Source: Girardia tigrina (lineage: Eukaryota). Taken from it: a DNA stretch of 60,041 nucleotides. The stretch is from assembly GCA_001938485.1 (NCBI GenBank), contig MQRK01236221.1:1-60041 (forward strand), read 5' to 3'. Each line of letters begins with the position of its first letter. Position 1 is the first letter of the stretch. A program made the translations under genes and the position numbers. The notes beneath the pieces were generated by a model. That model had not been told where the DNA came from and did no database searches. It worked only from the letters and a program-made list of their open reading frames with translations. This document shows positions 1 to 59,997 of the stretch, one piece after another.

Positions 1-728
1 ATCATATTTTTATTTATACATATTTCTATTTATATTGGTTGTGTAAAAAAAGAAAATACAAAAGTTCCTCAAAAAAAATATTTGTTTAAAAAATTCTAAT
101 TGTTATAGAAATAAATTTTTGGTGTTCGTTATAATGTCTTGTGAGCAAGAATCCAATATCCATCATAGACAGACTCACTCGTGAGACTGTAGATAAAATA
201 ATCGAAAAAGAAAAAATCAAAAATGAAAAAATTAATAGTTTAAACATTGAAACCTGCTTTACACCTGGGTATACTCTAAGCTTACCTTACTCTGAGGGTT
301 TTAAACAACTCAAGAATTCGATCTTGAAATCAACAGATAACATTTTAAATTTAAAAATTATTTCTCAATCATTTAAAGTTGAGAATATGTTTTACAATAA
401 ATCACATACTCCTTTAGGATTGTGTTCGGACATTGTTTATCAATACACATGTAATGGGTGCAATGCCACATACATCGGAGAGACTGCCCGTCATCTCTGC
501 AAACGAGTCCAAGAACACAGTCAAAAAGGGGGAAAGAGTAATATTACTGAGCATAAAGAAACGTGTAAATGTAATATGAGCATAAATGATTTTAAGAATT
601 TGTGCAAGCATTTGAAAAATTATTGGGAGAGAGTGCCATGTGAAGCATTGTTGATAAGATCATGTGATCCTAAAATCAATGTTCAAACAGCACTCTCAAA
701 CTAATTTGTTAAGAGTTTTCAATTAGAC

Positions 729-768
729 TTACGTAAGTGATTGCATAATTATTCATTTCTTATATAAA
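729..768 (+). promoter_or_regulatory. Putative PLE internal promoter: two bZIP-like sites plus TATA box
   Basis: TTACGTAA (729-736), TTGCATAA (741-748), TATATAAA (761-768). The same layout precedes the HHRs at 16356(-), 39593, 49656(-) and 50812. Confidence 0.55.
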
Positions 769-792
769 GCAATAAAAAAGAACATAATCAGT

Positions 793-831
793 GATCTGAT
801 GATGACGGTTAAACCGTCGAAATATATTATC
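793..831 (+). ncRNA. Minimal type I hammerhead ribozyme
   Basis: GAT-CTGATGA-T-GACGG-ttaaa-CCGTC-GAAA-TATA-TT^ATC: intact core, 5-bp stem II, palindromic stem III loop, stem I GAT/ATC. Confidence 0.85.
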
Positions 832-894
832 CTAAAATATATTTTTAAATGGCGTTTATTTGTTTATAAAAAATAGATAAAAATCGTTTTTTAT

Positions 895-2400: not shown

Positions 2401-3194
2401 TAATTTTAAGCATGCACGAAGATATTCTTCAGAAACATATTTTAATAGAATTTTATATTGTTTTTCTTAACAGATTTTGATTTCTTCCTAATTATTTAGA
2501 CGTTTTTTTATAGTTAAATTAAACTGTAAAGGAAATAACTTCTAAAATATTAATAATAAAATGATTAGATCAAAAATCCATATGCGACTAGACTTTTTGG
2601 AATTCGATTTATCATTAAGAATTTTTGTTTATTTTCTTCTGGATAAATTATATTTAAATTGTATCAGTTATAACGTGATTATTATTAATTATGTAAAGCA
2701 TTTATTTAAAAGAAAATTAATTGGTTTTGCTAATTCAATTACAATTTTGCGTGATCTTTTTTTTCTTTTTTTAAAAAGAACTTTTTGTATTTTATTATTT
2801 ATTGCCATATTTTTTTTCTAATAAAAATGAATAAAAAAATATTATCTAACAAATCCGTTTTAAGTAAGAAAATGTTTGAAAAACTTTATAAAATAAATAT
2901 TTTATGACAGTTAATGTTTTTCTTATAAATGTTTACAATTTGATTTTTTTTCATGAAAATATCACAGTTTGTTTTTTATACAATAATTTTATTACATTAA
3001 TTTTTACTTATTTTCTTTTATATATCATTTTAATATTTTCTTTTATAAACTTATATTCTCAGATTTAATGCAAAACTCATAATAAAAATATACTTAAAAT
3101 TTTAGGTCTTTTCAAAATAATATTTCTGTAAGTAAAATAATTAAATTAATAATTAACAAATTAGAAGTAATTAATGATTCTCTTTGAGATGATA

Positions 3195-5247
3195 CAGGGT
3201 GGCCCAATGGGTACGCAGCCTCTAATTTTTGCATATTCTAAATCTACTCGTCAAGACGAGTATTTTGATATATAACATGTGAGGTGTAAAAATTCCAGAA
3301 CTTGACCTTTTTGCGCAATAAAGGTCAAATTTTGAAACTCAGAATTTTGTTATAAAAATGGATTCATTTTGTGGATTTTTTAATGCTGATTAGGAATATA
3401 TGGTTATTTTTCTCATAGCACTTATGGTTCGAAAGTTATACGATTTATAAAACTTAACATTTATTGGTCAATGTTGAAAAAATTGAAAGAATAATGTAAT
3501 AAATAGAAAAATAATCAATGTTTGAATGAAAAAATATATTTNNNNNNNNNNNNNNNNNNNNNNNNNNNNNNNNNNNNNNNNNNNNNNNNNNNNNNNNNNN
3601 NNNNNNNNNNNNNNNNNNNNNNNNNNNNNNNNNNNNNNNNNNNNNNNNNNNNNNNNNNNNNNNNNNNNNNNNNNNNNNNNNNNNNNNNNNNNNNNNNNNN
3701 NNNNNNNNNNNNNNNNNNNNNNNNNNNNNNNNNNNNNNNNNNNNNNNNNNNNTGATTTCTTGTTCAATTGCGATTTTAAGCTCGTCAAGTGTTGCTGGTT
3801 CTGTGCGATAAACCTTGTCTTTGAGATAGCCCCATAAAAAGTAATCACAAGGGTTCAAATCTGGAGAATATGGAGGCTAATCCTCTCCAGAACCTGTTTT
3901 AGAAGGTGCATCCAATCTAATTATTCAATTTGAAAATTGTTCAGAAAGGAGATCAAATATTTCTTGAGTTCGATGAGGTCTTGCTCCATCTTGCATAAAC
4001 CAATATTCCTCAACTTTTTGCGAACCGAGTAAATAAGGAAAGATTTCATTGTTGAGCCTATTAAAATAGGTTTTTGCGGATATATTTTGATAAATGAAGA
4101 ATGGTTCGATGATTTCTACAGATGACATTGCACACCAAACAGTTAAGCGAATAGGATGAAGTGGTCTAATTATTGCATGATGAGGATTTTCTGTTCCCCA
4201 AAAAACGCCAATTTTGCTTATTAACGTAACCATGCAGATAGAAATGAGCTTCATCAGAAAACCATATTTTGTTAAAATCAATTTCACCACTCTCTTTCAT
4301 GTTAATTAGTTTATTTGAGAATTCAAATCTTTGGACACCAGCTCTTTCACTAATCGGTTGATTAATTTGAATCTTGTAAGGGAATAAAACTAGATCTAAT
4401 TTCATTATTCTTTGTATAGATGATCTTTGTATTCCGAGTACTCTTGAGGCCTGTCTTTGGCTTGATTCGGGATTCTCTTGAAAATAATTTTGTACGGACT
4501 CGATGTTCTCTTCCGTTCTTACAGTCTTGGATTTCCTTTTCATTTCTTCTTTATTATCTAGAACCGTTCCAAATTCCGTGAACTTCTCGTATGCACGCTT
4601 TATTGTAGTTGGATCAATTTTATAATGGCTTCCAAACTCAATTCTAAATTCTTTAGCCACTTCGGTTGCCGATTTCAGTTCGTGGAACTTAAAAACCATC
4701 AAAATTCGTTGTTTAACGCTATATTTACTCATTTTTGGAAGCTTAAAAATAAAAAAATTTATTTAATAAAATACAACAATTGAGGTTAATTAAACTAGTT
4801 CTTACCAGAAGTGATAAATTTAACTAAATTAGCTATCAAAATACAGAACTATAATTAATCTCTCGCAAGTTAATGCCAAAATTGATACCAAATGCTTTTT
4901 AATCAATTGACAAAATACAACGATAGGGTTTTTTCAAAAAATTAAAATATTTAATTTGTTTTTTATGAAACTGATCAATAAATGTTAAGTTTTATAAATC
5001 GTATAACTTTCGAACCATAAGTGTTATGAGAAAAATAACCATATATTCCTAATCAGCATTAAAAAATCCACAAAATGAATCCATTTTTATAACAAAATTC
5101 TGAGTTTCAAAATTTGACCTTTATTGCGCAAAAAGGTCAAGTTCTGGAATTTTTACACCTCACATGTTATATATCAAAATACTCGTCTTGACGAGTAGAT
5201 TTAGAATATGCAAAAATTAAAGGCTGCGTACCCATTGGGCCATCCTG
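3195..5247 (-). mobile_element. Tc1/mariner (rosa/DD41D-related) transposon with ~276-bp TIRs and a disrupted transposase (4732 to ~3755)
   Basis: TA-flanked CAGGGTGGCCC...GGGCCATCCTG; TIRs 3195-3470 and 4972-5247. Motifs WFSDEAHF, FMQDGARPH and PPYSPDLNPCDYFLWGYLK. One frameshift and two stops. Confidence 0.92.
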
Positions 5248-6109
5248 TATAATGGAAAATGTGTGTGGATTTTAATGATATTCATATTAACATTATAAAA
5301 TTTCTGATAATTTTATAATAGTTTTAGGATCACAATATTTACCATCTTCGTTTCAGGGATTATAATTGTTAGGATTTTATGAAGCTCACATAAATTTTTG
5401 AATTTAAATATTGAAAATCTCTCAAAAGAATTTTCAAAATATATTTAAAATTAAAATCTACAATAATCATTTTGTTATTGAAACATCATTATAAAAAATA
5501 AAAATTTATTAAAATAAAATATTATAATAACAAAAATGAAAATGTATAGTTTAAGATTTTTTCAATGACAATATTATAATAATAAATTAGAAAAATTAGT
5601 AAAAATTTGTTTTCAAAAATAATAAAATTAATGTCTTAAAATTAATTTTGAATATTCATAAATTAAAAAAAATTAAATAAGTATTCGTATTTATATTTCA
5701 TTATCTTTATGTACAAATGGCTTGTACAAAAGAAAAAATATTCCTCGAAATTTTTTTCAAAAATATGTTATTACGTTATATTAATAAAATTTGTGCTATG
5801 ACTTCGACTTTTGATATCGAACCGAACGATAATATTAAAAAAGAAAAAAATAGTTTTGCAATCGCAACAAGCTGTAACAATATTATGTTCGTTTCCATAT
5901 AGTATCTTAACTCGTTTAAGAGAAAAAATATTGACGACAAACCTCTCAAAGATTTTTGGTAAAACTCCATCGAGATTTATATATGTGTATATATTTACAT
6001 TTGAATTGCGATTCATGAAAAACATCTTCAATTTAAATTCATATATAAAATGAATGTATTAATTTATACATACATTAAAAGCATTATAGAAGATTTATAT
6101 ATTAATTCT

Positions 6110-11590: not shown

Positions 11591-12239
11591 ATAAAGGGGT
11601 TCGACAAAATAATGGTAATACTTCATATCTTTGAACGTGTTACAAACACTCAAAACTTTAGATATTTTAATTTTATTTAGTTTATTATTTTTGTTATTAG
11701 ATAAAATAACCGTAATAACTGGCATATATTTTGGAATTTTCATTAGGCGAAGATCGCAATAACAGATTTCCAATGAATCTCTACAAAATTCAGCTTCCAT
11801 AAAACCAGTTTGTCGATATCTATACAAATACGTATTCAACGGAAGAGTTTCATTTAGAAAATCTATATATCTATTTATCTATATATCTAAATCTATCTAT
11901 CTATTTTAATTAGAAATATATACACTATTTTCGATCTCTGGTCGAGTATACGTTTGGAGACAGCCAAAAGTAGCAATTGGTTTAGACAACGTTTTCTCAA
12001 CCGTAGTACATATCAATGATTCTATGATTATGTGAATTATTATTGAACATTTATGGTAAATTTTGAAAATTCAAGTAAATTGATTTCCGTCTCCATCGTC
12101 TGCACAAGAAATAAGTATTTTAACTAAAGAATGGGCTGAAATTCCTTTTAAAACTATTAGGTTCGTAGAATACATCAAAAATACCCTATTTGGACTATTT
12201 GAATTCTTACGCTAGCCGTTCGGTCTTAGAAACTCCACT

Positions 12240-14270
12240 CATTCCTTCCAACGCTTATATTGACACTGTTGCTTCTGGTCTCGAAGGCGTTTTCGTTTAC
12301 CTAGATGATATTATAATCACGTCAAATAATCAATATCATCATTTCCGAACTTTATGTAAGCTCCTCACACGGTTAGATCAGAATAATCTACAAATTAATA
12401 TAGAAAAAAATGTATTTTTTTTCAGGCTTTAGTTAGGTTTCTTGGATTCAACATCAACTCTCATGGTGTGTCGCCAATCAATGACCGGATAGAAGTAATA
12501 TAGAAACTTTGACTACCAGCCAATGTCTCACAACTCCGCAGTTTCCTCGGCGTGGTGAAATTCTATAATCGGTTCTTACCTCATGCTTCCATTAGTTTCT
12601 ATGTCCTCGGGTCCCAAAACCCTCAATCTAACTTGGATTGAAAATTTAACATCCAGATTCTCCACTATTTAGAAACAAATCCTCAAATACCCAACTCTTA
12701 TAGACTATTATAGACCCATCATTACCATTACAGCTGGTCTGTAACGCGTCTGATGTTGCAATTGGTGTTGCGCTGCATCAACTAAGAGAACATATACTTG
12801 AACCTATCGAGTTCTTTTCTCGAAAACTCTCAGACGCTGAAACCCGAAATTCAACATTTGATCAAGAACGTTTGGCCATGTACGATGCAGTTCCCCATTT
12901 TTCTCACTTTCTTTCTGGTCACCAATTCCAGATACTAACCGATCATAAACCACTATTATATTTATCACAAATGAAAAATCCTTCATCTCTACAACATCGA
13001 CAAATCTTATACCTCTCTTAGTTCGATTTTTCAATTTCTCACCTACAGGTAAGCAAATTATTATTCCTGATTTCCTTTCCAGGAACACAATTTCAGCAAT
13101 ATCACTCCTTCTTGATTCTACAGTGGAATTACTTCAGTCCAAAAAAATAAACAAAGAAGAAAGATCCAATTTGCCGAATCATCACACCGACATTGATGGT
13201 TTAACTTATGACTCCAGGGATCCTGCGTTTCGAAGAATCATTCTCTCTTCCCACCTATAGAGACGCATCTTCGAAACATTCCACCAACTACATAACCAAG
13301 GTTGAAAGGCAACTTACGAACTCATTCATACCCATTTCGTTTCGCCGAATATGAGACGAGACATTAGGACACGGTGCCAAGAATGTATTGAATACCAGAA
13401 ACAAAAAATTACACGACATACTAAACCACAAATAATCAGTTTCCCCACAGCTAATCGTTTAAAAATCGTTCATATAAATATTGTCGATCCCCTATCACCT
13501 TCAAACGGATGTTAATACATTTTAACCATGATTGATCGGAAAACCAAATGAGCCGAAGCAGTTCCAATATCTTATATATCTGCTGAAAATGTCGTTAAAC
13601 ACTATTATTTCTTGGATTGATCGATATGGCATACCTTCTCAAGTAATCACTGATCAAGGGAGACAATTCAAAAGCAATTTATTCAAAGCCCTGGCAAAAC
13701 GTCTTGGTTTCAAGCATTTTCACACTACCCCGTATAATTCTCAATCCAATGGTTTAGTTGAACGTTTCCACCGGAATTTGAAGACTTCTCTATGCTATCT
13801 GGGTATCTCTTCAAACTTGCACGACTCTTCCCCTCGTTTTATTAGGTTAGCAAAATACTTTTGATTCTTCTACAGGTACTTCACCCAGTTCCATGTTATT
13901 TGGAACCGGAACAGCTTTCCCAGATGAACTTTTCGGAGGCTATATTATCACCGATCTCGAGTCTCTGCAAGCGCGAGGAAACATTTCCTTTCTTCGGATA
14001 CAAACCTGTCTTTCGGCAACTCAGCTAAGAATTTAGCTCATATGCCTGACTCTCTCTCCTCGGTAAAATTTGTCTGGCTCCGTGAAAAGAATATTAATCA
14101 TATGAGGTTTAGGTACACTGGACCCTTCCCAGTAATATATATTAAAGGTAACATTGCAAAAATTAAAATTCAGAATACCGAACAAACTATCAATCTCGAG
14201 CGTCTAAAGCCTAGATTTGATTTTGTCCAAGACGAGAACAACCCCGAACTCCGTTTTACTCTAAGGGGCC
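12240..14270 (+). mobile_element. Decayed Ty3/Gypsy pol (RT, RNase H, integrase)
   Basis: GVFVYLDDIII (RT); PLQLVCNASDVAIGVALHQ (RNase H); GIPSQVITDQGRQF...SQSNGLVERFHRNLK (integrase); RYTGPFPV (GPY/F). Many stops and frameshifts. Confidence 0.92.
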
Positions 14271-14354
14271 CAAATCGTTCATATAAATATTGTCGATTCC
14301 CTCTCACCTTCAAACGGATGTTAATACATTTTAACCATGATATATCGGAAAACC

Positions 14355-16620
14355 TGATGACTAAATTGACCAAATCCTTCTGAATATGGAATGCTTAAAA
14401 CGTATTTTAAAGTTGTTGATTCTTCTATATCATTTTTAATCGGTTTATTAATTAATTTATCAATTGTTTCTTTGGTCAATTTCTGAACAATTGATTTTGA
14501 ATAACCATTTTTATTCAATAATTTAGTTAATTGGTTAATACTATCACAACTTGTGTATAAGTTGATGATAATGCCCAAGATATAAAAATTAGTCCTCTAA
14601 TCATAATTTATTTGTATCGAGATTCACAAAAACTGTTTGGCGTTGTATATATCAGTATCAGTTTTCTTTCTGTGAATCTCAGTCTCATAAACATCTCTTT
14701 TCCTTTCAATCAGTAAGTCTATGAACGATAATTTACCATTATTCTCTGTTTCTGTTGTAAATTTAATATTCGGATGCGAAGAATTTAAGTATTCTAAAAA
14801 TAGATCTATATCAATTTGATTATCGAAAATTAGAAAAATATCATCAATATAGTGTTTATACGCTAGAGGTTTTTGACCGGGAAACAAATCGATCTTATCT
14901 TCTATACTTGACAAAAAATATTGATGCCAGAGTTGCAGCTAATGGAGAACCCATTGTTACACCATCAACCTGTTTATACCTCTCATTATTAAAAAGAAAA
15001 TGAATATTAGAAGTGACAAAACACAACAATTCACGAAATGCGACTTCATCGATAAGATGGTATTCAGCAACATTATCTTTCCAAAGATTGCAACATAAAT
15101 CAATCGTTTCCTCCAGAGAAACATTGGTGAAAAGACTAACAACATCAAAAGAAACCATAATTTCATTTTTGTTACTATTCTTGTAATTTGAAATGAAGTC
15201 AACAAACTCAAAACTGTCTAAATAATTAAAACCCTTTTTTAGAAGGGGCTTTAATTTACCATCAAGATATTTCGCTACTTCATATTGAGATGTATTAACC
15301 ATAGATAATATGGGACGCAAATGAATGCAATCTTTATGAACTTTTGGAAGTCCGTAAAGTTTGGCTGGTTGAGAACCAACTTCTTTTAAACTATTAGCTA
15401 AACTTTTATCAATATTTTTATTTTCAATTAAATTCGATAATAACGAAGACAAATATTCATCATCTTTTAAAGAGGGCAACTTTCCATTTTTCCTTAATTT
15501 ACTAACTTTATTAAATTGCGGAAAATTAAAAACCTTTTCCATTTTATCAAAATAATCACAATTATTCATTACAACTAATCCATTCTCTTAATCAAATTTA
15601 CATATCTTTACATTCTTTTTTGATAAATTTTTTAAAATTAAAAAATATTTATTAAATTATTTTTTATTTCTTTCTAAATATACATTCATACTATTATTTA
15701 ACATGTGTTTTAAAATATCAAAATCCACACTATTAAATAATTTAGCATGATTTAATGTCAAAAATTGGAACATTGATTCAATTTTGGATTGAATTTTAAA
15801 TTTATTTAACCTAGTTTTAATTCCATGTTTAGGACCGAATTTCAATAAATTGATCTCTTCATCTAATAATTCTACATTACTTAAATTTAGACCGTATCTT
15901 TAACATTAAATTCAAAAACAGCAAATAATTTTCTTAGTTTTAAGTTTTTTGTTCTGTCTCAATTTTGTTACTAGAGATTTTATTTGAGTGATAATTAGAG
16001 AATATGACACCAATGAAAACACATTTGTCTCCAGTATTCTCCATAGGATCTTCCGATGAATTTTGCGAATATCTTCTTTCTGTAAGCATTCATGCAATTT
16101 TCTTCTGAATATAAATGAGGGGATAATATTCTCGGCAACACAGTAAGCCAAAAAATATATATCCAATTCTTTTCTTCATAACAAACAAACTAATTTCAGA
16201 TATTTCTTGAATGTAACCAGCGCATCAGGAAAATAATTATTCAAAAAATTAAAAAAATGATGGCAACTTATTTTTAAAAACATAAGTACGCCATTTGTTA
16301 AATAGACATTTATTTTTCAAGACAATTAATTTCGACGGCATAACCATCATCGTCAGGTCTCAAGAAAAAAATGAATTTGAAATCTGTTATATATGCAAGC
16401 AGTGATTATGTCATCAATGGATTGTTATGTCATCTAAACACGCTCAATTGGGTTTTCGAGAGACCCGTTTGCACATTAACCTTAGGATCTAAAGATCTGA
16501 TATAAAGTGCTTCACAGGCCACCCTCTCCCAATAGTTTTTAAAACGAGTACACAGAATTTTAAAATCATTTATGTTTATGTTTTCGTTCGACTTACAACC
16601 CTTTCTGTGCTCTACATGAC
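14355..16620 (-). mobile_element. Penelope-like retroelement, 3'-truncated, with upstream pseudo-LTR
   Basis: ATG at 16294. RT motifs PAKLYGLPKVHK, LRPILS, MVSFDVVSLFTNV, YKQVDGVTMGSPL, YIDDIF. Upstream 16435-16615 encodes the GIY-YIG tail (NYWERVACEALYIRSLDPKVNVQ), then UTR and HHR. Confidence 0.93.
16317..16363 (-). ncRNA. Minimal type I hammerhead ribozyme
   Basis: Minus strand TTGAGAC-CTGACGA-T-GATGG-ttatg-CCGTC-GAAA-TTAA-TT^GTCTTGA. Confidence 0.85.
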
Positions 16621-26850: not shown

Positions 26851-27086
26851 TTGGATTTCATTCGGAGGATGTTTATGATGTGATTGATCATATTTTTAAG
26901 ACAGAGGCCTTAGTGAAGTTTTATTATATGTTTAATAAGTCGATAATTAAAAACATTCTTTTTAATTTAAATTAAAAAGAATGTTTTTAATTATCGACTT
27001 ATTAAACATATAATAAAACTTCACTAAGGCCTCTGTCTAAAAAATATGATCAATCACATCATAAACATCCTCCGAATGAAATCCAA
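26851..27086. repeat. 236-bp spacerless near-perfect palindrome
   Basis: 118-bp arms centred at 26968/26969; one mismatch seen. Confidence 0.95.
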
Positions 27087-29031: not shown

Positions 29032-30310
29032 TTAGGTGTATAACTTAGTTTTTTGGATTTTCTAAGAGATGGTGTAACCTTTGTAATAAGCATTATTTTA
29101 CAGTCGTACGTACAGATTTTTAAAGTGCTGAAATCGGGGCATTAAAATTAAGTAGGTCATTGACCTTAAATGCGTCATAAACATATTTTTAATCACGTTT
29201 TAGCATGACAACTTTCGTACCAACAAAACAGCATTTGCGGGAAGCACTACTGTTTTTCTTTAATCAAAAGAAAAAAGCTGCAGACAGTTTTCAGCTTCTT
29301 GAAGAAACTTATGGTCAACATGCACCAACTCAACAGACTTGCGAGAACTGGTATAAACGTTTCAAAAGTGGAGATTTCGACGTAAGTGACAAAGAGCGTT
29401 CCGGTCAACCAAAAAGATATGAAGATTTGGAATTACTACTGAAGGAAGATTCTACTCAAACAGAGATAGAGCTTGCAAACAGTTAAATGTTACTCAAGCA
29501 GCCATAAGTAAACGTCTACATGCTATGAAAATGATTCAAAATGAAGGAAAATGGATACCCCATGAATTGAATCAAGCCAACATTGAAAGTCGATTACTGA
29601 TATTCAATTCATTGCTTACAAGACAACGAAGATGGTCGTTTTTGCATAATATTGTGACTGAAGATGAAAAATAGATTTATTATGTTAACTCTAAACGCAA
29701 GAAATCGTGGGTTCATCCCGGCAAACCGTCCACGTTAACAGCAAAAAGAAACATTCATGGAAGCAAGGTTATGTTGTGCATTTGGTGGGATCAGAAAGGT
29801 GTACTGTTCTATGAGCTGCTGAATTCGAATGAAATTGTTAATGCAGAATGTTACCTACAACAGTTAATGAAATTGAACGATGCATTGAAGGAAAAACGTC
29901 CTATTCCAGCCAACAAACAGCAAATAGTGATTTTGCTCCATGACAATGCTCGGCCACATGTCGCAAAACAAGTAAAAAACACGTTGGAAGCACTTAAATG
30001 GGAAATTCTACCGCATGCTGCCTATTCACAAGATTGTGCTCCATCAGATTATCATCTGTTCTGATCAATGCAAAGCGCTCGTCGGGACCAGCACTTCAGA
30101 AACCAGGAACATTTAAAAAATGGCTAGAACAATGGATCGCATCAAAAGACCAAAACTTTTTTTTCGATGGAATTCATAATTTGCCTGAAAGATGGTCGAA
30201 AGTCATAATTAACGATGGAAAATATTTTGATTAGAATAAAACTTATTATGTCATATAAATAAACTTGTCTGTTCTGCAAAAAAATCCAAAAAACTAAGTT
30301 ATACACCTAA
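29032..30310 (+). mobile_element. Full-length Mos1-like (mauritiana subfamily) mariner with a disrupted transposase
   Basis: Perfect 30-bp TIRs with TA TSD. MTTFVPTKQHLRE..., HDNARPH, YSQDCAPSDYHLF. Frameshifts and stops. Confidence 0.95.
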
Positions 30311-30369: not shown

Positions 30370-30810
30370 TCGAAAATATAATTTGATTAAAGCTTTTTTT
30401 ATATAATTATTGGACATGTTTCGATGTTTACATACATCATCATCAGCAATTTGAAAACAATNNNNNNNNNNNNNNNNNNNNNNNNNNNNNNNNNNNNNNN
30501 NNNNNNNNNNNTGGACATGTTTCGATGTTTACATACATCATCATCAGCAATTTGAAAACAATTTTAATAGATACATTAACTTTAAAAGGTATATTAGGGA
30601 TTGAATATTATTATTTATTAAAGTATTATTATTATTATTATTATTTATTACCCAATAATACTTTAATAAATAATAATATTCAATCCCTAATATACCTTTT
30701 AAAGTTAATGTATCTATTAAAATTGTTTTCAAATTGCTGATGATGAGTATGTAAACATCTAAACATCTCCGAAATTGTATAAAAAAGCTTTAATCAAATT
30801 ATAATTTCGA
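30370..30810. repeat. Inverted repeat with an HHR in each arm, centred on a (TTA)n tract
   Basis: 30654-30810 is the reverse complement of 30370-30640, allowing for the N gap. Confidence 0.85.
30409..30450 (-). ncRNA. Minimal type I hammerhead ribozyme (repeated at 30512-30551; degenerate inverted copy at 30733-30772)
   Basis: Minus strand ATTG-CTGATGA-T-GATGT-atgtaa-ACATC-GAAA-CATG-TC^CAAT: intact core, GUC cleavage triplet, palindromic CATG loop. Confidence 0.88.
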
Positions 30811-33369: not shown

Positions 33370-36060
33370 CACATGTTTAATTTTCAGGTACCGATCAGTC
33401 TACCAATCAAACGATCTGCAATGTGGTCCGATGAGCAAGCACAAGATCAAAGCGAACTCCCCCGAATCGAAAGTGGCTACATGGTCACCTAGAGGAGTTA
33501 AAGATACTAATTGGAGAAAAATTGGCGAGACGCACTGAGTTTGTGAGGAATAAAAACAATGACACTTTTTCCAGGTAAAAATCCAGCAGAATACTTCTCC
33601 AGGAGAATATCAGAAGATGGAAACGTGAAAGAGTCGAGGCTCTAGGCGAACAAATCGAGAAGATACTTAACAATGACGGAGAAGGAAAACTGAAAGAGCT
33701 CACTACGGAACTACGTATATTCTTTAAATCACAATCGAAGGAGAACACTCTCTGTACTCCCTCGAACTCTATTTGGAACAAGGAGCTGATCAACCACTTC
33801 AGTAATCTTTTTAAGGCCCCCCTCTAGAGCAGAAGAAACTGACTGATATCGCTGCAGAAACTCTAAATCTCGATGATTCGGATTCTACCGCGACGAGAGA
33901 AGAAATAGCAGAGGCAGTGAAGCAGTTGAAGAGTGGGACAGTCGCGGGGTCTGATGGATTGATCCCTGAAATCTATAAATTGGGGGTGGGAAAATACTAA
34001 CCCGACTAAAGGAATGATTTAAGAAGATATGGAACAGATTAGAGGCCTTCTCACCTCTTTGGAGAGAGATCAAAGTGGTGGTTCTTTTCAAAGAAAAAGG
34101 CACTCGAAAAGATTCAAATAATTTCCTTTTTTTGTTTTAGATGTAGGAGGAAAGATTCTAGCCAGAATCACCGCGAACCGAATCACTCGGATCACCAAAG
34201 CGATACTGGACGAGTGGCAGTATGGATTTCGCCCGGGAAGAGGAATTCAATTGGCTATAAGTATCTTGAGGAAATTGCAGGAAAAAGCGCGATACAAGGA
34301 CATTAATATGTATGTCATCTTTATCGACTTGGAGAAAGCATTCGACAATGTCCCACGGGAGTTTCTCTGGAGCTGTTTAAAGAGACTAAGGATAAGAGGG
34401 AGAATGTTAGAGATCATCAAAGCTTTCCATGAGGGATTCAAAGGTTCTACGGGTGATGAAAACCTCAACATGGATAAAAGAGTGCGTCAAGATTGTGTTT
34501 TAGGGCTGCTCCTGTTCAATATTGTATTCGACATGGTTGTGAAAAGAGCAATATTGAACTGTCTCTCTAAAGGAGTGATGAGGAAACATGAAAATGGAAG
34601 CTTCCTTGAGATTAACAGATTAGCCTATGCTGATGACATCTGCCTCATCGATACGGACTGGAACAACCAGATAAATAATTTAAACATTTTAAATGCATTC
34701 TTCTTAGATTTAGGTCTCAAAATTAACATCGGTAAAACCAAAGTTTTCAACCTAAACGGAGTTACTTGGATCCTTACTGCTGGGTACCAGCTTGAGGACG
34801 GTATTAAGTGGGTCTCTAGCTTTTGTTATCTACGATCCACGATCTCTTCAGCAGGAAATTTGGATGCGGAAGTAAAAGAAAGAATTAAGAAAGAAATCTA
34901 GAAGATCCGGGACTTGAGACAAGTGCTAAAGAGCTCCAAACTGAGTATGAGGAACGAGAAGAAAGTATTCAACGCATGCATATGCTCCGTAGTCTACTAC
35001 GGCTGTGAAAGTTGGAGAACTACGGAAAAGAACATTATGAAATTACATGCCCTTCATAATTTATGCACGCGCATGGTTAGGAAGAAATACCAGTAAATTG
35101 TACTCCCACATTCCATGGGTATTATCGCAAGTAAAAGGCTTACTTTCCACAGTAAGACGGAAACTTCAAAGGAGTATGAGACAATCAAACGAATCTGTAA
35201 GGGAGAAATACAAATGGGGAAAAAGATCAGTGGGAGAAAGAAGCAATCAATTTCGGAATACCTTCGAGTGGACATACAGTGGCTATTTGGGGATGATGTG
35301 AGGTATGGAGATTTTATTAACCGCATCATTCACAGAAATCCTTCTGTATCGAGGGAAACTTACATAAACTCCTTAATTCAATCAGAAAGACTCAATAGGA
35401 CAAGAACAATTGTACCTAAGCTGATCAACAAGAGAGACAAACGTCCCCAATGTCCAATAGAAATATGCTACAAGGAGTTTGCAGAAAAGAAGGAGCTGAA
35501 GAGACACATGAAAAATGACCACACGGGGTCGCTTCCGCTAATCCTGATCATCTGAACGAGACACAACAACATATTCACTATGTAAAATGTCGTCCAAAAC
35601 GAAGGGGTGGTTGACAAGGCACTTCTACCGGGATCATAAATTGGATGAGACAGAAGAATTGGAGAACCGACAATGACACCAACGCAAACCAGTACAACAA
35701 ATACTACAGAAGAAAGAGTTGTAGAAAACCTCAATTTTCCAGGCAACCAGATTCAATCCGTGACGGACTCCCGACTATCTCGATGGCGGTGGAAGAAGCA
35801 ATATGTACTGAAGAAACACATCTAACTTTTTGGATTGCAGATCTAACTGCAAGGGGGAGTTCAGATGTTCTTTTCGCGGCTGTACGAAGTCCAAGAATGC
35901 AGACAAAGGTATGCAGAACCTTGGATATACAACCCATGGGTAGTCGTTTCTCACAGGGGAGCCGAAAAGATCTCGGAGACCGAAACTAACCGACCCTATA
36001 GGAGGCCTATTGGGGGGCTGCTACTGATTCTTTAGTTTGAGTTGATCCTCTAAAGAGCCT
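33370..36060 (+). mobile_element. RTE-like LINE ORF2 remnant (RT plus two C-terminal C2H2 fingers)
   Basis: QYGFRPGR, FIDLEKAFDNVPR, RQDCVLG.LLFN, LAYADD, GLKINIGKTK, YYGCESW; fingers CPIEICYKEF...RHMKNDH and CKMSSKTKGWLTRHFYRDH. Confidence 0.9.
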
Positions 36061-39400: not shown

Positions 39401-39592
39401 TTGTGTTAAATGAATGAATATTAATAAATTTATTTAAATTCATTTATTTTAATTGTCAGTTGTCGTTGAAAAATAAAATTTGAAATTGCAACTAATTCTT
39501 TTTGATTTATTTTCCTGAACACTGATTACGTATTGATTGCATAATCATTAACTGCGCTATATAAGTAAATTTCGTTTGAAAAATCATTTGTT

Positions 39593-39618
39593 CTGACGAT
39601 GACGGTTAAACCGTCGAA

Positions 39619-39624
<6 letters not shown>
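39593..39624 (+). ncRNA. Hammerhead motif truncated at the cleavage site and followed by (TAA)n
   Basis: CTGACGA-T-GACGG-ttaaa-CCGTC-GAAA-TTAA-T, then TAA repeats to ~39651. Upstream TTACGTAT, TTGCATAA and TATATAA. Confidence 0.8.
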
Positions 39625-39652
<28 letters not shown>

Positions 39653-49554: not shown

Positions 49555-50875
49555 AATAAGAAATTTAAAAAATAATGGCAAAATTTTATAATTAAGAACG
49601 CCATTAAAATCAACTTTTATTGCAATATATTTCGGTGGATTTTCCAACATCTTCAGACTGAATTAACAACAATTTCGCTGTCTTATATACAGCAAATTGA
49701 TGATTATGTAAACATCTTGCGTAATAACTAATTAAATATTTTCAACAAATTGGAAGAGAGACTTGTTTGTACATTAATGGACGGATTAAGTGATTTAAAA
49801 CAGTATTTTCTATATTAAAATTACAAATTCAAAATAATTTTCTTAAATTGATAAGTTTTTTATTTTGTGCAGTAATTTTATCATTAATTAATTTGTCGGA
49901 AATACTATCAGAAAATTCATTACACAATTGAAAGCAATAATCATCACTTACATTTCTAAGACCAGTTTCAACTATTGTAAATTCATTCATCAGTCGACTT
50001 CTGTGTTTCTTTTCTTTCTCGATCATTCTTCTCAGAATTTTTCTGTGAATTCTTCTAATATCCTCCGACAATAGGCAATCATGTAATTTTGATTTAAAAA
50101 TGAAAGAATTTGATTTATATGAAAGAATGCAATTCAGCCTTTCAAGAGATATATGAAAATCGTGAATTCTCTTAAAAGAAAAGAAGCGGACTTATATTTT
50201 CTTGAAACGTGCAATGAAGAAAAAATGATACCTTCTTTCATTTTTAAATCAAAATTACATGATTGCCTATTGTCGGAGGATATTAAAAGAATTCACAGAA
50301 AAATTCTGAGAAGAATGATCGAGAAAGAAAAGAAACACAGAAGAAAATTATTTGGAATTTGTAATTTTAATGTAGAAAATACTGTTTTAAATCACTTAAT
50401 CCGTCCATTAATGTCCAAACAAGTCTCTCTTCAAATTTGTTGAAAATATTTAATTAGTTATTACGCAAGATGTTTGCATAATCATCAATTGCCATCATCA
50501 ATAAACAATATATGCCATTCTTTCCCTCAAATTGAACCCCCTAAAGAAGTTTTCATACTGAATGGTTTCTGCTTCCAATTGTGTCTCCAAGATCAGAGTG
50601 TGAATGTATTCATAAACATAAGTCGTCGAGTTGTCATAATAACAACTATCAATGGTAGAACATACTTTCACTAATATCAGATTTATGGTATTGACCTTTC
50701 GTTTGTAAATTATGTTGAAATAAACGTTAAATATAATTATTTATTACGCAAGATGTTTGCATAATCATCAATTTGCTATATATAAGACAGCGAAATTGTT
50801 GTTAATTCAGCCTGAAGATGTTGGAAAATCCACCGACATATATTGCAATAAAATTTGATTTTAATGGCGTCCCTA
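49555..50875. mobile_element. Head-to-head pair of internally deleted mini-Penelope copies, each with an HHR
   Basis: Minus copy 49555-50108 and plus copy ~50110-50875. The PLE N-terminus is fused directly to the endonuclease tail KSLNPSINVQTSLSSNLLKIFN*, then promoter, HHR and ATGGCG. Confidence 0.85.
49621..49660 (-). ncRNA. Hammerhead ribozyme motif with weak stems
   Basis: CTGAAGA-T-GTTGG-aaaat-CCACC-GAAA-TATA-TT^GC. The plus-strand twin at 50810-50846 has GAAA changed to GACA. Confidence 0.65.
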
Positions 50876-50889
50876 AAAATAGTTTATCT

Positions 50890-58729: not shown

Positions 58730-59997
58730 TTAGGTTGGGGAAAAAGTAATCCATTATTTTAATCCATTATTTTAATTCATTATTTATCGAGCAAACAATT
58801 TCAAATTTATGCTCTTTGTCAAGGTAACATTTCACAGTAATTTCACAAAAAAATTTTTTGCTTTTTTTTATTCAGTTCTGAGTTACACAGTGTTAAAAAT
58901 GGAAGTCAACAAATAAAAAATTCGGTACATTTTATAGTTTTTATACGATAAAAGCGAAAATGCAAGCCAGGCGACTGTTATTGTGAATGGTGTTTATGGT
59001 GCCAATACTGTAACAACTAATTACACGCAATTTTGGTTTCGTCGATTTCGTGGAGGCATTTTTGATGTTAAAGATGCATCTCGCACAGGCAGGCCTATCG
59101 TTGAAAATGTCGATAATATCTCGGCAATGGTCAAAGTTGACCGGCATGTTAGTAATCGTAACATCGCACATGAGCTGAAGATCGACCACAAAACGGTTTT
59201 AAACCATTTTGGCAAAGCAGGATTCAAAAAGAAACTTGATGTTTGGGTTCCACAGCAATTAACACCAAAAAACATGATGGATCGAAGTTCCATCTGCGAA
59301 GCCTTGGCCAAATGAAATGAAATCGATCAATTTCTTAAACGGATGGTTACTGGGGATGAGAAATGGGTCACATACGACAATATTGTAGGAAAACGATCGT
59401 GTTCAAAGCACGGTGAAGCACCTCAAACGGTCGCCAAACCCGGATTAACCATTAGGAAGATTCTACTGTGTATTTGGTGGAAATGGAAACGAATCATTTA
59501 TTATGAGTTGCTTCCGTATGGCCAAGCACTAAATTCAGATCTGTACTGTCAACAACTGGACCATGTGAAGATAGTAATTGATGAGAAACGATCAGAATTG
59601 GCCAACAGAAGAGGTGTTGTGTTCCCTCACGACAACGCCAGACCATATACGTCTGTAGTGACTCACCAGAAACTCAGGGAGCTTGGTTGGGCAGTTTTAA
59701 TGCATCCACTATATAGTCCGGACCTGGCACCAAGTGATTACCACCTTTTTCTTGCATTGCAAAATTTCCTGAGTGATAAGAAATTGGGATCAATATAAGA
59801 TTGTGAAAATCGATTACTACAGTTTTCGCCAATAAGGACCAAGACTTCTACGAGGGAGGCATTATGAAACTACCTTCAAAATGGCAACTAATTATACAAC
59901 AAAACGGTGCATATTTGACTCCAAGAGGACAATCCGAAACATATTAAATAAAGTTTTGAATTTCATGCCAAAATAATTGATTTCTTTTTCCCCAACG

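Follow-up and report, generated by a model that had tools for sequence, protein, structure and literature searches.

The question raised by this locus is where, relative to a hammerhead ribozyme, a Penelope element begins its RNA and its protein, and what self-cleavage would then do to the message. The window, the whole stretch of 60,041 nucleotides of Girardia tigrina DNA that was analyzed (contig MQRK01236221.1, assembly GCA_001938485.1), is a repeat-rich part of an AT-rich animal assembly of 1.43 Gb. An initial annotation had marked five cassettes in it, each with a pair of bZIP-type sites followed by TATATAA and a hammerhead and, in four of them, by ATGGCG, and had proposed that transcription starts at stem I and that cleavage removes the cap just upstream of an AUG in ATGGCG. 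We find the cassette to be genuine and well conserved, a variant of an element already known, for which the promoter idea stands and the ATGGCG-start idea does not.

Five Loci and Four Families

All five cassettes lie where they had been placed (Table 1). From the start of TATATAA to C3 they measure 35, 37, 35, 33 and 33 nt (loci 1–5), and ATGGCG follows the predicted cut at 21, 30, 20 and 20 nt in four loci, distances that agree with those first described. The description of the cassettes as divergent families is right for four, F1–F4, rather than for five, because loci 4 and 5 are inverted copies with 93% identity and thus form one family (F4).

Table 1. Features of the Penelope cassettes in the window (starts and cuts are predicted)
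Feature	Position	Strand	Details
Penelope ORF 3' end, with thumb linker plus a GIY-YIG endonuclease that has CxxC between GIY and YIG	135..726	+	GIY-YIG E=7e-4; frameshift near its end; family stop TAG 724-726
Locus 1 (F1), sites	729..748	+	distal TTACGTAA 729-736; proximal TTGCATAA 741-748
Locus 1, TATA and putative start	761..793	+	TATATAA 761-767; Inr-like TCAGTG 788-793, with the start predicted near 790
Locus 1, minimal type I hammerhead	793..831	+	core 796-822; core AUG 802-804; palindrome ATATAT 822-827; predicted cut after 828; stem I 3 bp
Locus 1, ATGGCG	849..854	+	frame +2 to ORF; hairpin 5' arm in longer copies
Locus 2 (F2), sites	16406..16432	-	distal TGACATAA 16432-16425; proximal TGACATAA 16413-16406
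Locus 2, TATA and hammerhead	16320..16393	-	TATATAA 16393-16387; core 16356-16330; core AUG 16350-16348; predicted cut after 16324
Locus 2, ATGGCG and ATGGC..GCCAT hairpin	16259..16294	-	ATGGCG at 16294 opens a 6-codon peptide, not in frame; hairpin z -2.7
Broken RT ORF downstream of locus 2	14321..16350	-	frameshifts, stops; stops short of endonuclease
Locus 3 (F3), solo pLTR	39526..39625	+	TTACGTAT 39526; TTGCATAA 39537; TATATAA 39558; core 39593-39619; AUG 39599; (TAA)n from predicted cut onward, stem I mostly lost
Locus 4 (F4)	49599..49724	-	TTACGCAA 49724; TTACATAA 49711; TATATAA 49689; core 49656-49630; AUG 49650; predicted cut after 49624; AATAAA 49621-49616; ATGGCG 49604 (frame +1)
Locus 5 (F4), inverted relative to locus 4	50744..50869	+	TTACGCAA 50744; TTGCATAA 50757; TATATAA 50779; core 50812-50838; AUG 50818; ATGGCG 50864

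The cassette is the pseudo-LTR (pLTR) of one clade of Poseidon-type Penelope elements. Loci 1, 2 and 4 each follow the 3' end of an ORF for a GIY-YIG endonuclease, and the pLTRs occur in partial tandem (locus 2, which is the 5' pLTR of such a tandem) and inverted (loci 4 and 5), with a tail. A single ORF encodes a reverse transcriptase (RT) and, at the C-terminus, a GIY-YIG domain: RVT_1 scores above its cut-off in two copies, the GIY-YIG profile match is weak and below the curated cut-off (E=7e-4), and the order of RT then endonuclease is visible in fragments and in a deleted copy, L103. No intact full-length element was recovered among the fetched copies. In the Penelope/Poseidon clade of EN+ PLEs, the endonuclease has a CCHH finger whose two cysteines sit between GIY and YIG, and the linker lacks the extra finger that is the mark of Neptune and Nematis (PMC8557442). 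Window 135-704 holds YTCNGCNATYIGET with downstream H residues and a linker without a Cys cluster, which by its motifs is the finger arrangement of Penelope/Poseidon. Across families the stop codon ends 62–79 nt before C3, so the whole module lies in a short (~70-nt) 3' UTR, and by sequence the order is stop codon, site(s), TATA, ribozyme, AATAAA and hairpin.

The window contains further repeats. A nested inverted F4 structure at 49587-50881 has an N-terminal ORF piece joined to the last endonuclease codons by an internal deletion, and a third partial copy of the two sites, without TATA, is found at 50461-50481. L103 is an F2 copy with a similar in-frame deletion (306 aa); these deleted copies may be non-autonomous mini-elements. 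Three hammerhead cores without site or TATA, at 30419-30446 (-), 30520-30547 (-) and 30737-30774 (+), belong to a very abundant family with stem II GATGT..ACATC and palindrome ACATGT, copies of which elsewhere finish in (TA)n; an endonuclease upstream of cores of this type was not found in the loci examined. Judged by motifs only, remnants of Tc1/mariner-type transposases lie at 3189-5253, 29193-30064 and 58938-59798, a gypsy-like pol remnant adjoins the broken Penelope ORF at 12169-14383 and a LINE RT fragment is present at 34122-34901. The perfect 118-bp palindrome without spacer at 26851-27086 may be an assembly artefact.

A Minimal Hammerhead with Covarying Stems

The ribozyme comprises CUGANGA and GAAA, G10.1-C11.1, an extra base after A9, a palindromic helix III and a short helix I, and is of the known minimal type described in PMC4209133. 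Across families stem II has 4–6 bp and stem I mostly 1–5 bp, with stem III being a 6-nt palindrome of four kinds in families with the module (ATATAT, ATTAAT, ACATGT and ACTAGT). The stems covary in eight families, 95.8% of cells being paired and four pairs showing double changes, with slid controls far lower. A covariance-model check came back empty, the Rfam scan of the window at E≤5 giving no hammerhead, and the motif is established by stems and covariation instead; these, with the palindromic stem III, bear out the initial description of PLE pLTRs with a minimal, dimer-type type I hammerhead. Locus 5, with a broken core, and locus 3, with a broken stem I, are the exceptions, and the locus 5 ribozyme, having GACA in place of GAAA, is likely dead. 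Such short-stem motifs are reported to cut weakly even as dimers (PMC4209133), and in cofolding the predicted minimum-energy dimers mostly swap stem II, which is not the active fold.

One Site at Fixed Distance from TATA

Genome-wide, the core pattern CTGANGATG-N12-16-CGAAA has 38,981 matches, against 47 for the reversed control. Cores with an exact TATATAA 22–36 nt upstream number 13,269 (reversed control 0), compared to 642 when TATATAA is shifted to 41–55 nt upstream, so the motif is enriched upstream of hammerheads across the genome as the cassette idea had implied. Site, TATA and 5' half-core together give 16,897 matches (control 6), and the two-site pattern gives 12,771 (control 153), one-strand double counting making the loci fewer than the latter matches. 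About half of the genome's cores are in other families without site or TATA at the module position (50 of the first 100 cores listed, by our own count), and the module thus marks one clade and not all Penelope families.

The upstream elements were counted in 72 copies that were chosen without any upstream condition and are homologous for 80 nt or more on the upstream side. Of these, 59 have TATA; the proximal, D-box-like site is exact in 55 (background 0.7%) and within one mismatch in 71 (background 8%), and the distal site is exact in 12. At locus 3 the distal site, TTACGTAT, has one mismatch, and at locus 2 its first three bases, TGA, are the stop codon of the upstream endonuclease fragment. 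What had been described as a pair of bZIP sites is thus borne out as one proximal site at fixed spacing, but the pair is not general. For comparison between families we took one real copy from each of 19, six of which came from a search requiring the site. In these the proximal site extends to about TKRCRTAAYVRTY, and its start lies 19–22 nt before TATA in 16 of 19 copies (~20 bp). An Inr-like hexamer occurs within 14 nt of C3 in nine of the 19 families (background 9%); because the families share ancestry, binomial P values for such family counts overstate significance. The spacer from TATA to C3 has an identity between families of 0.53 versus 0.52 when shuffled, in keeping with the poor conservation first noted for the intervening sequence, and the module is common to groups whose last 41 endonuclease residues are only ~30–37% identical. 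Coming after the stop codon, the site is free of coding constraint.

The commonest proximal variants, TGACATAA (14 copies), TTGCATAA (13 copies) and TTACATAA (11 copies), correspond, as reverse complements, to D-box #4, #1 and #2, respectively, which were defined by DBP/E4BP4 ChIP-seq in mouse (PMC6687812). The factor at the site is likely a PAR-bZIP/E4BP4 or C/EBP-type protein. Consensus sites of bZIP proteins overlap, so C/EBP- or ATF-type binding at the D-box-like site would also be possible. At L107 a head-to-head junction is centered on the palindromic site TTACGTAA.

The arrangement of bZIP-type site and TATA places the predicted start at stem I, as had been proposed, and we consider it quite probable from this anatomy that the two form a promoter. 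The 5' ends of copies are spread roughly evenly and show no peak at the predicted start, 6 of 93 lying within 14 nt of it and 24 within 44 nt; these 93 are what is left of 132 copies after setting aside 39 whose contig ended. RNA runs, used as assembled contigs only, have small word shares with the loci, and neither a start or cut signal nor a credible splice joint was seen in their contigs, the RT part of locus 2 being left out of that comparison. A U6-type promoter was considered and rejected, the five best U6 genes of the genome sharing an upstream sequence without the D-box-like site.

The Probable Start Codon Lies Before the Predicted Cut

The reading frame was tested in 15 copies in which the ribozyme is followed by the N-terminal domain, and for ATGG in 11 copies. 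Composed of A9, the extra U and G10.1, and with core A6 as the A at -3, the core AUG shares its frame with the N-terminal domain in 10 of the 15 copies (six families) and is stop-free in six; the remaining five are frameshifted by indels. The N-terminal translations align (MTVxPSKxI..KW..LP.FF) and their lengths vary by multiples of three, and by simple arithmetic the chance of six families sharing one frame is ~1 in 240. F1, F3 and most F2 copies have no other in-frame AUG before the domain, and the later in-frame AUGs that occur past the cut in F4, F8, one F5 and some F2 copies are neither shared nor conserved. In the short-stem families F19 and F20, where the KW..LP motif is the sole guide to the frame, the core AUG opens 2–6 codons in another frame, and an AUG in frame with KW..LP is found within stem II, on its 3' strand, which likewise precedes the cut. 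We infer that the RT-endonuclease ORF very probably starts at the AUG within the hammerhead core. As the ORF would begin there, cleavage would remove the start codon together with the cap. The extra base is U in 38,981 cores and another base in 987, the two patterns differing by one extra required base; families without the module also keep the extra U, which the start codon can thus explain only in part. A small family, which includes L401, has C as the extra base and hence ACG for the core AUG, with at least five copies among the matches listed.

The predicted cut falls 23–27 nt after the core AUG, inside the ORF. The proposal of cleavage just upstream of the AUG is thereby reversed, the in-frame AUG preceding a cut that lies ~27 nt into the ORF, and ATGGCG, the start codon of that proposal, opens into the RT protein in none of the 11 copies. 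Could the cap still be removed just upstream of an ATGGCG start to leave a coding RNA, like in R2-type elements or fungal viruses? ATGGCG has a good Kozak context and recurs 20–30 nt past the cut, and ribozymes are described to promote initiation in chrysoviruses and fusariviruses (PMC13725137), but no tested copy has it in frame, and it falls into two different frames (+1 in F4, +2 in F1, F2 and F8), is absent from F3 and F5 and usually gives a 4–6-codon peptide. It also is the 5' arm of a hairpin, paired with GCCAT and covarying in F8, which has GGATGA..TCATCC instead; the energies of this hairpin are modest (z +0.3 to -2.7 in 13 copies). Only an unseen splice or frameshift could rescue translation from ATGGCG, the RNA contigs having no joint in support, and we hold such a start to be very improbable.

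AATAAA and the Ends of Copies

Downstream, AATAAA is found within 27 nt after GAAA in 10 of the 19 families (background 6%) and in two reading frames, F1 and F8 having AATATA in its place. Since it comes after the cut site, the layout is LTR-like, with the ribozyme as the putative R region. Copies end 60–120 nt beyond the cut in 81 of 119 cases and within 3 nt of it in none of the 119, AT-rich flanks possibly lengthening the apparent ends. Locus 3, which ends at the predicted cut, is the exception and is blurred by a microsatellite. Were the RNA polyadenylated after AATAAA, the longer copy ends would need a read-through RNA or a circle.

Related Motifs and Known Systems

At least 100 PLE-type stretches from metagenomes were collected for comparison, giving 64 non-redundant motifs with good stems. 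Among the matches listed, 49 of 100 PLE-type motifs have AATAAA no more than 35 nt away versus 6 of 100 control windows, TATA is found at 32–36 nt in 37 of 64 (a mild peak) and a bZIP-type site near TATA in 5 of 61. Three loci of one metagenome group, L178, L259 and L211, again among the matches listed, have TKACATAA exactly 20 nt before TATA. These three are short inverted PLE-type ends, and related loci carry a CACGCGG word at the site position. Viral contigs, used as null set, gave 120 pattern matches, 34 with stem II, five with a palindrome and none with the site.

In the Poseidon element PAc from Anolis carolinensis (Frangieh et al. 2024, PMC11167929), the ORF likewise begins at hammerhead stem II, with the cut 26 nt downstream as compared to 23–27 nt here, and insertions end ~100 nt into the ORF near a stem-loop. 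PAc is cleaved only with protein present, its insertion in vitro proceeds without cleavage and no RNA-seq reads end at the cut. It is a single family, for which the accessible part of that report describes no promoter anatomy, whereas here many families have an upstream D-box-like site, TATA and AATAAA. Published minimal PLE hammerheads share with those here the type I fold, the extra base between 9 and 10.1, the palindromic helix III, the short helix I and the many thousand solo copies; in the text available from those studies, the extra base is noted without a link to a start codon, cleavage and circularization are proposed and no promoter context is given. The pLTR of Pen2a_Av from Adineta vaga (Arkhipova et al. 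2013, PMC3846280) has a putative TATA and Inr, the first ORF codons and an optional tail, but is one element with a 20-bp TATA-Inr gap, and upstream site and ribozyme are not discussed in the sections available. In Penelope from D. virilis, the only one with a mapped promoter as described in PMC2377424 (Schostak et al. 2008), the upstream copy's 3' UTR serves as promoter of the downstream copy, as proposed here. That promoter is TATA-less and internal, with an intron in the 5' UTR and a start ~120 nt before the ribozyme, in contrast to the external TATA module here, where an intron would not fit. LTRs of retroviruses and Metaviridae (U3-R-U5; Benachenhou et al. 2013, PMC3601003) resemble the pLTR in having TATA, Inr, AATAAA and a GT-rich stretch in one repeat, with TGTAA upstream of TATA in some clades. 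The pLTR differs from them in that TG..CA ends, integrase and tRNA primer site are absent, that the repeat comes from a partial tandem and that the R-like part is a coding ribozyme.

Proposed Mechanism and Alternatives

The mechanism that we propose is as follows. In a partial tandem, the upstream copy's 3' UTR would act as a compact, U3-like external promoter, with the D-box-like site and TATA starting transcription a few bases before the hammerhead. The RNA would begin at stem I with a leader of ~9–16 nt, and protein would be made from the AUG inside the ribozyme; a predicted leader of this length, with the AUG abutting stem II, is poor for scanning. If the RNA ends shortly after AATAAA of the downstream repeat, it would carry one ribozyme per end, in an R-like manner. 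Translating ribosomes and the folding ribozyme would compete over one stretch of bases, and given the palindromic stem III, two ends or two RNAs would be cut only as a pair, perhaps assisted by the element's protein. Once cut, the RNA could not make protein and would be degraded, or ligated to a circle serving as template. That the cassette combines a promoter with a ribozyme that bears the start codon, self-cleavage removing cap and AUG and so ending translation, we place just on the probable side of even. That cleavage works as an off-switch in vivo, which would follow from the cut RNA being uncapped and its first AUG usually being the out-of-frame one, we put a shade below even. A further step, in which the pLTR is a minimal U3-R-U5 with the hammerhead as R, and the terminal ribozymes, paired with the help of protein, strip cap, AUG and poly(A) to yield a circular template, is speculative and on balance unlikely. 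If true, this U3-R-U5 reading would account for the extra U, for the partial tandems and for the 3' tail, and transposition would come under the control of clock, light or stress.

Alternatively, promoter and start codon hold and the hammerhead rarely cuts in vivo, being kept for protein binding or RNA pairing, with uncut RNA serving as message and template both. Uncut read-through RNA would explain why copies end well beyond the cut and never at it, stem I is very short, and Naiad elements thrive without hammerheads (PMC8557442). The results with PAc bear on both sides: core mutants insert normally in vitro and reads ending at the cut are missing, yet the ribozyme does cut when protein is present (PMC11167929). 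A re-ligated circle would, however, give the same insertion ends, and every family retains the catalytic core and a palindromic stem III, with compensatory changes, so that we regard rare cutting as rather unlikely, though not far-fetched.

The two remaining alternatives concern the upstream module. Site and TATA-like word might be an RNA signal of the 3' UTR, or a site in the DNA for the protein that the element encodes, with transcription being internal or by read-through, for which the internal promoter of D. virilis Penelope (PMC2377424) is a precedent. The 5' ends of copies ignore the predicted start, the genome is AT-rich and these elements favor TA targets, the inverted junction in L107 is centered on a palindromic site and one RNA contig spans the region. 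Such a role would not call for the fixed 20-bp distance between site and TATA, found at the same spacing in three loci from unrelated metagenomes among the matches listed, nor for a TATA ~30 nt before Inr-like words, and the site variants stay within the known D-box set rather than preserving a palindrome. TATA and Inr have moreover been noted in the rotifer pLTR (PMC3846280), and altogether we judge a non-promoter role improbable. The fixed spacing of an upstream element to TATA, with T-runs soon after, would also suit an snRNA-type or Pol III promoter (PSE and TATA) from which a short RNA with the ribozyme is made; T-runs abound in the ORF and AATAAA suggests Pol II, which leaves this reading with hardly any credence. 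The preferred account thus is that of a D-box-like site and TATA driving an RNA whose start codon lies in the ribozyme.

Conclusions

Ribozymes in pLTRs, promoter activity of a pLTR, the suggestion of TATA and Inr in a rotifer element and an ORF start within the ribozyme of an anole element have all been published. In the open-access literature we found no report of the site/TATA/AATAAA layout, with its fixed-spacing site and AATAAA behind the cut, or of a core AUG as a general feature of PLEs. The role of Penelope hammerheads is an open question that this clade makes testable, as it gives exact coordinates for RNA start, translation start and cut. The core AUG suggests why PLE ribozymes have their extra base, which is so far unexplained, and the more than 16,000 site-TATA modules scattered over the genome could drive host transcription.
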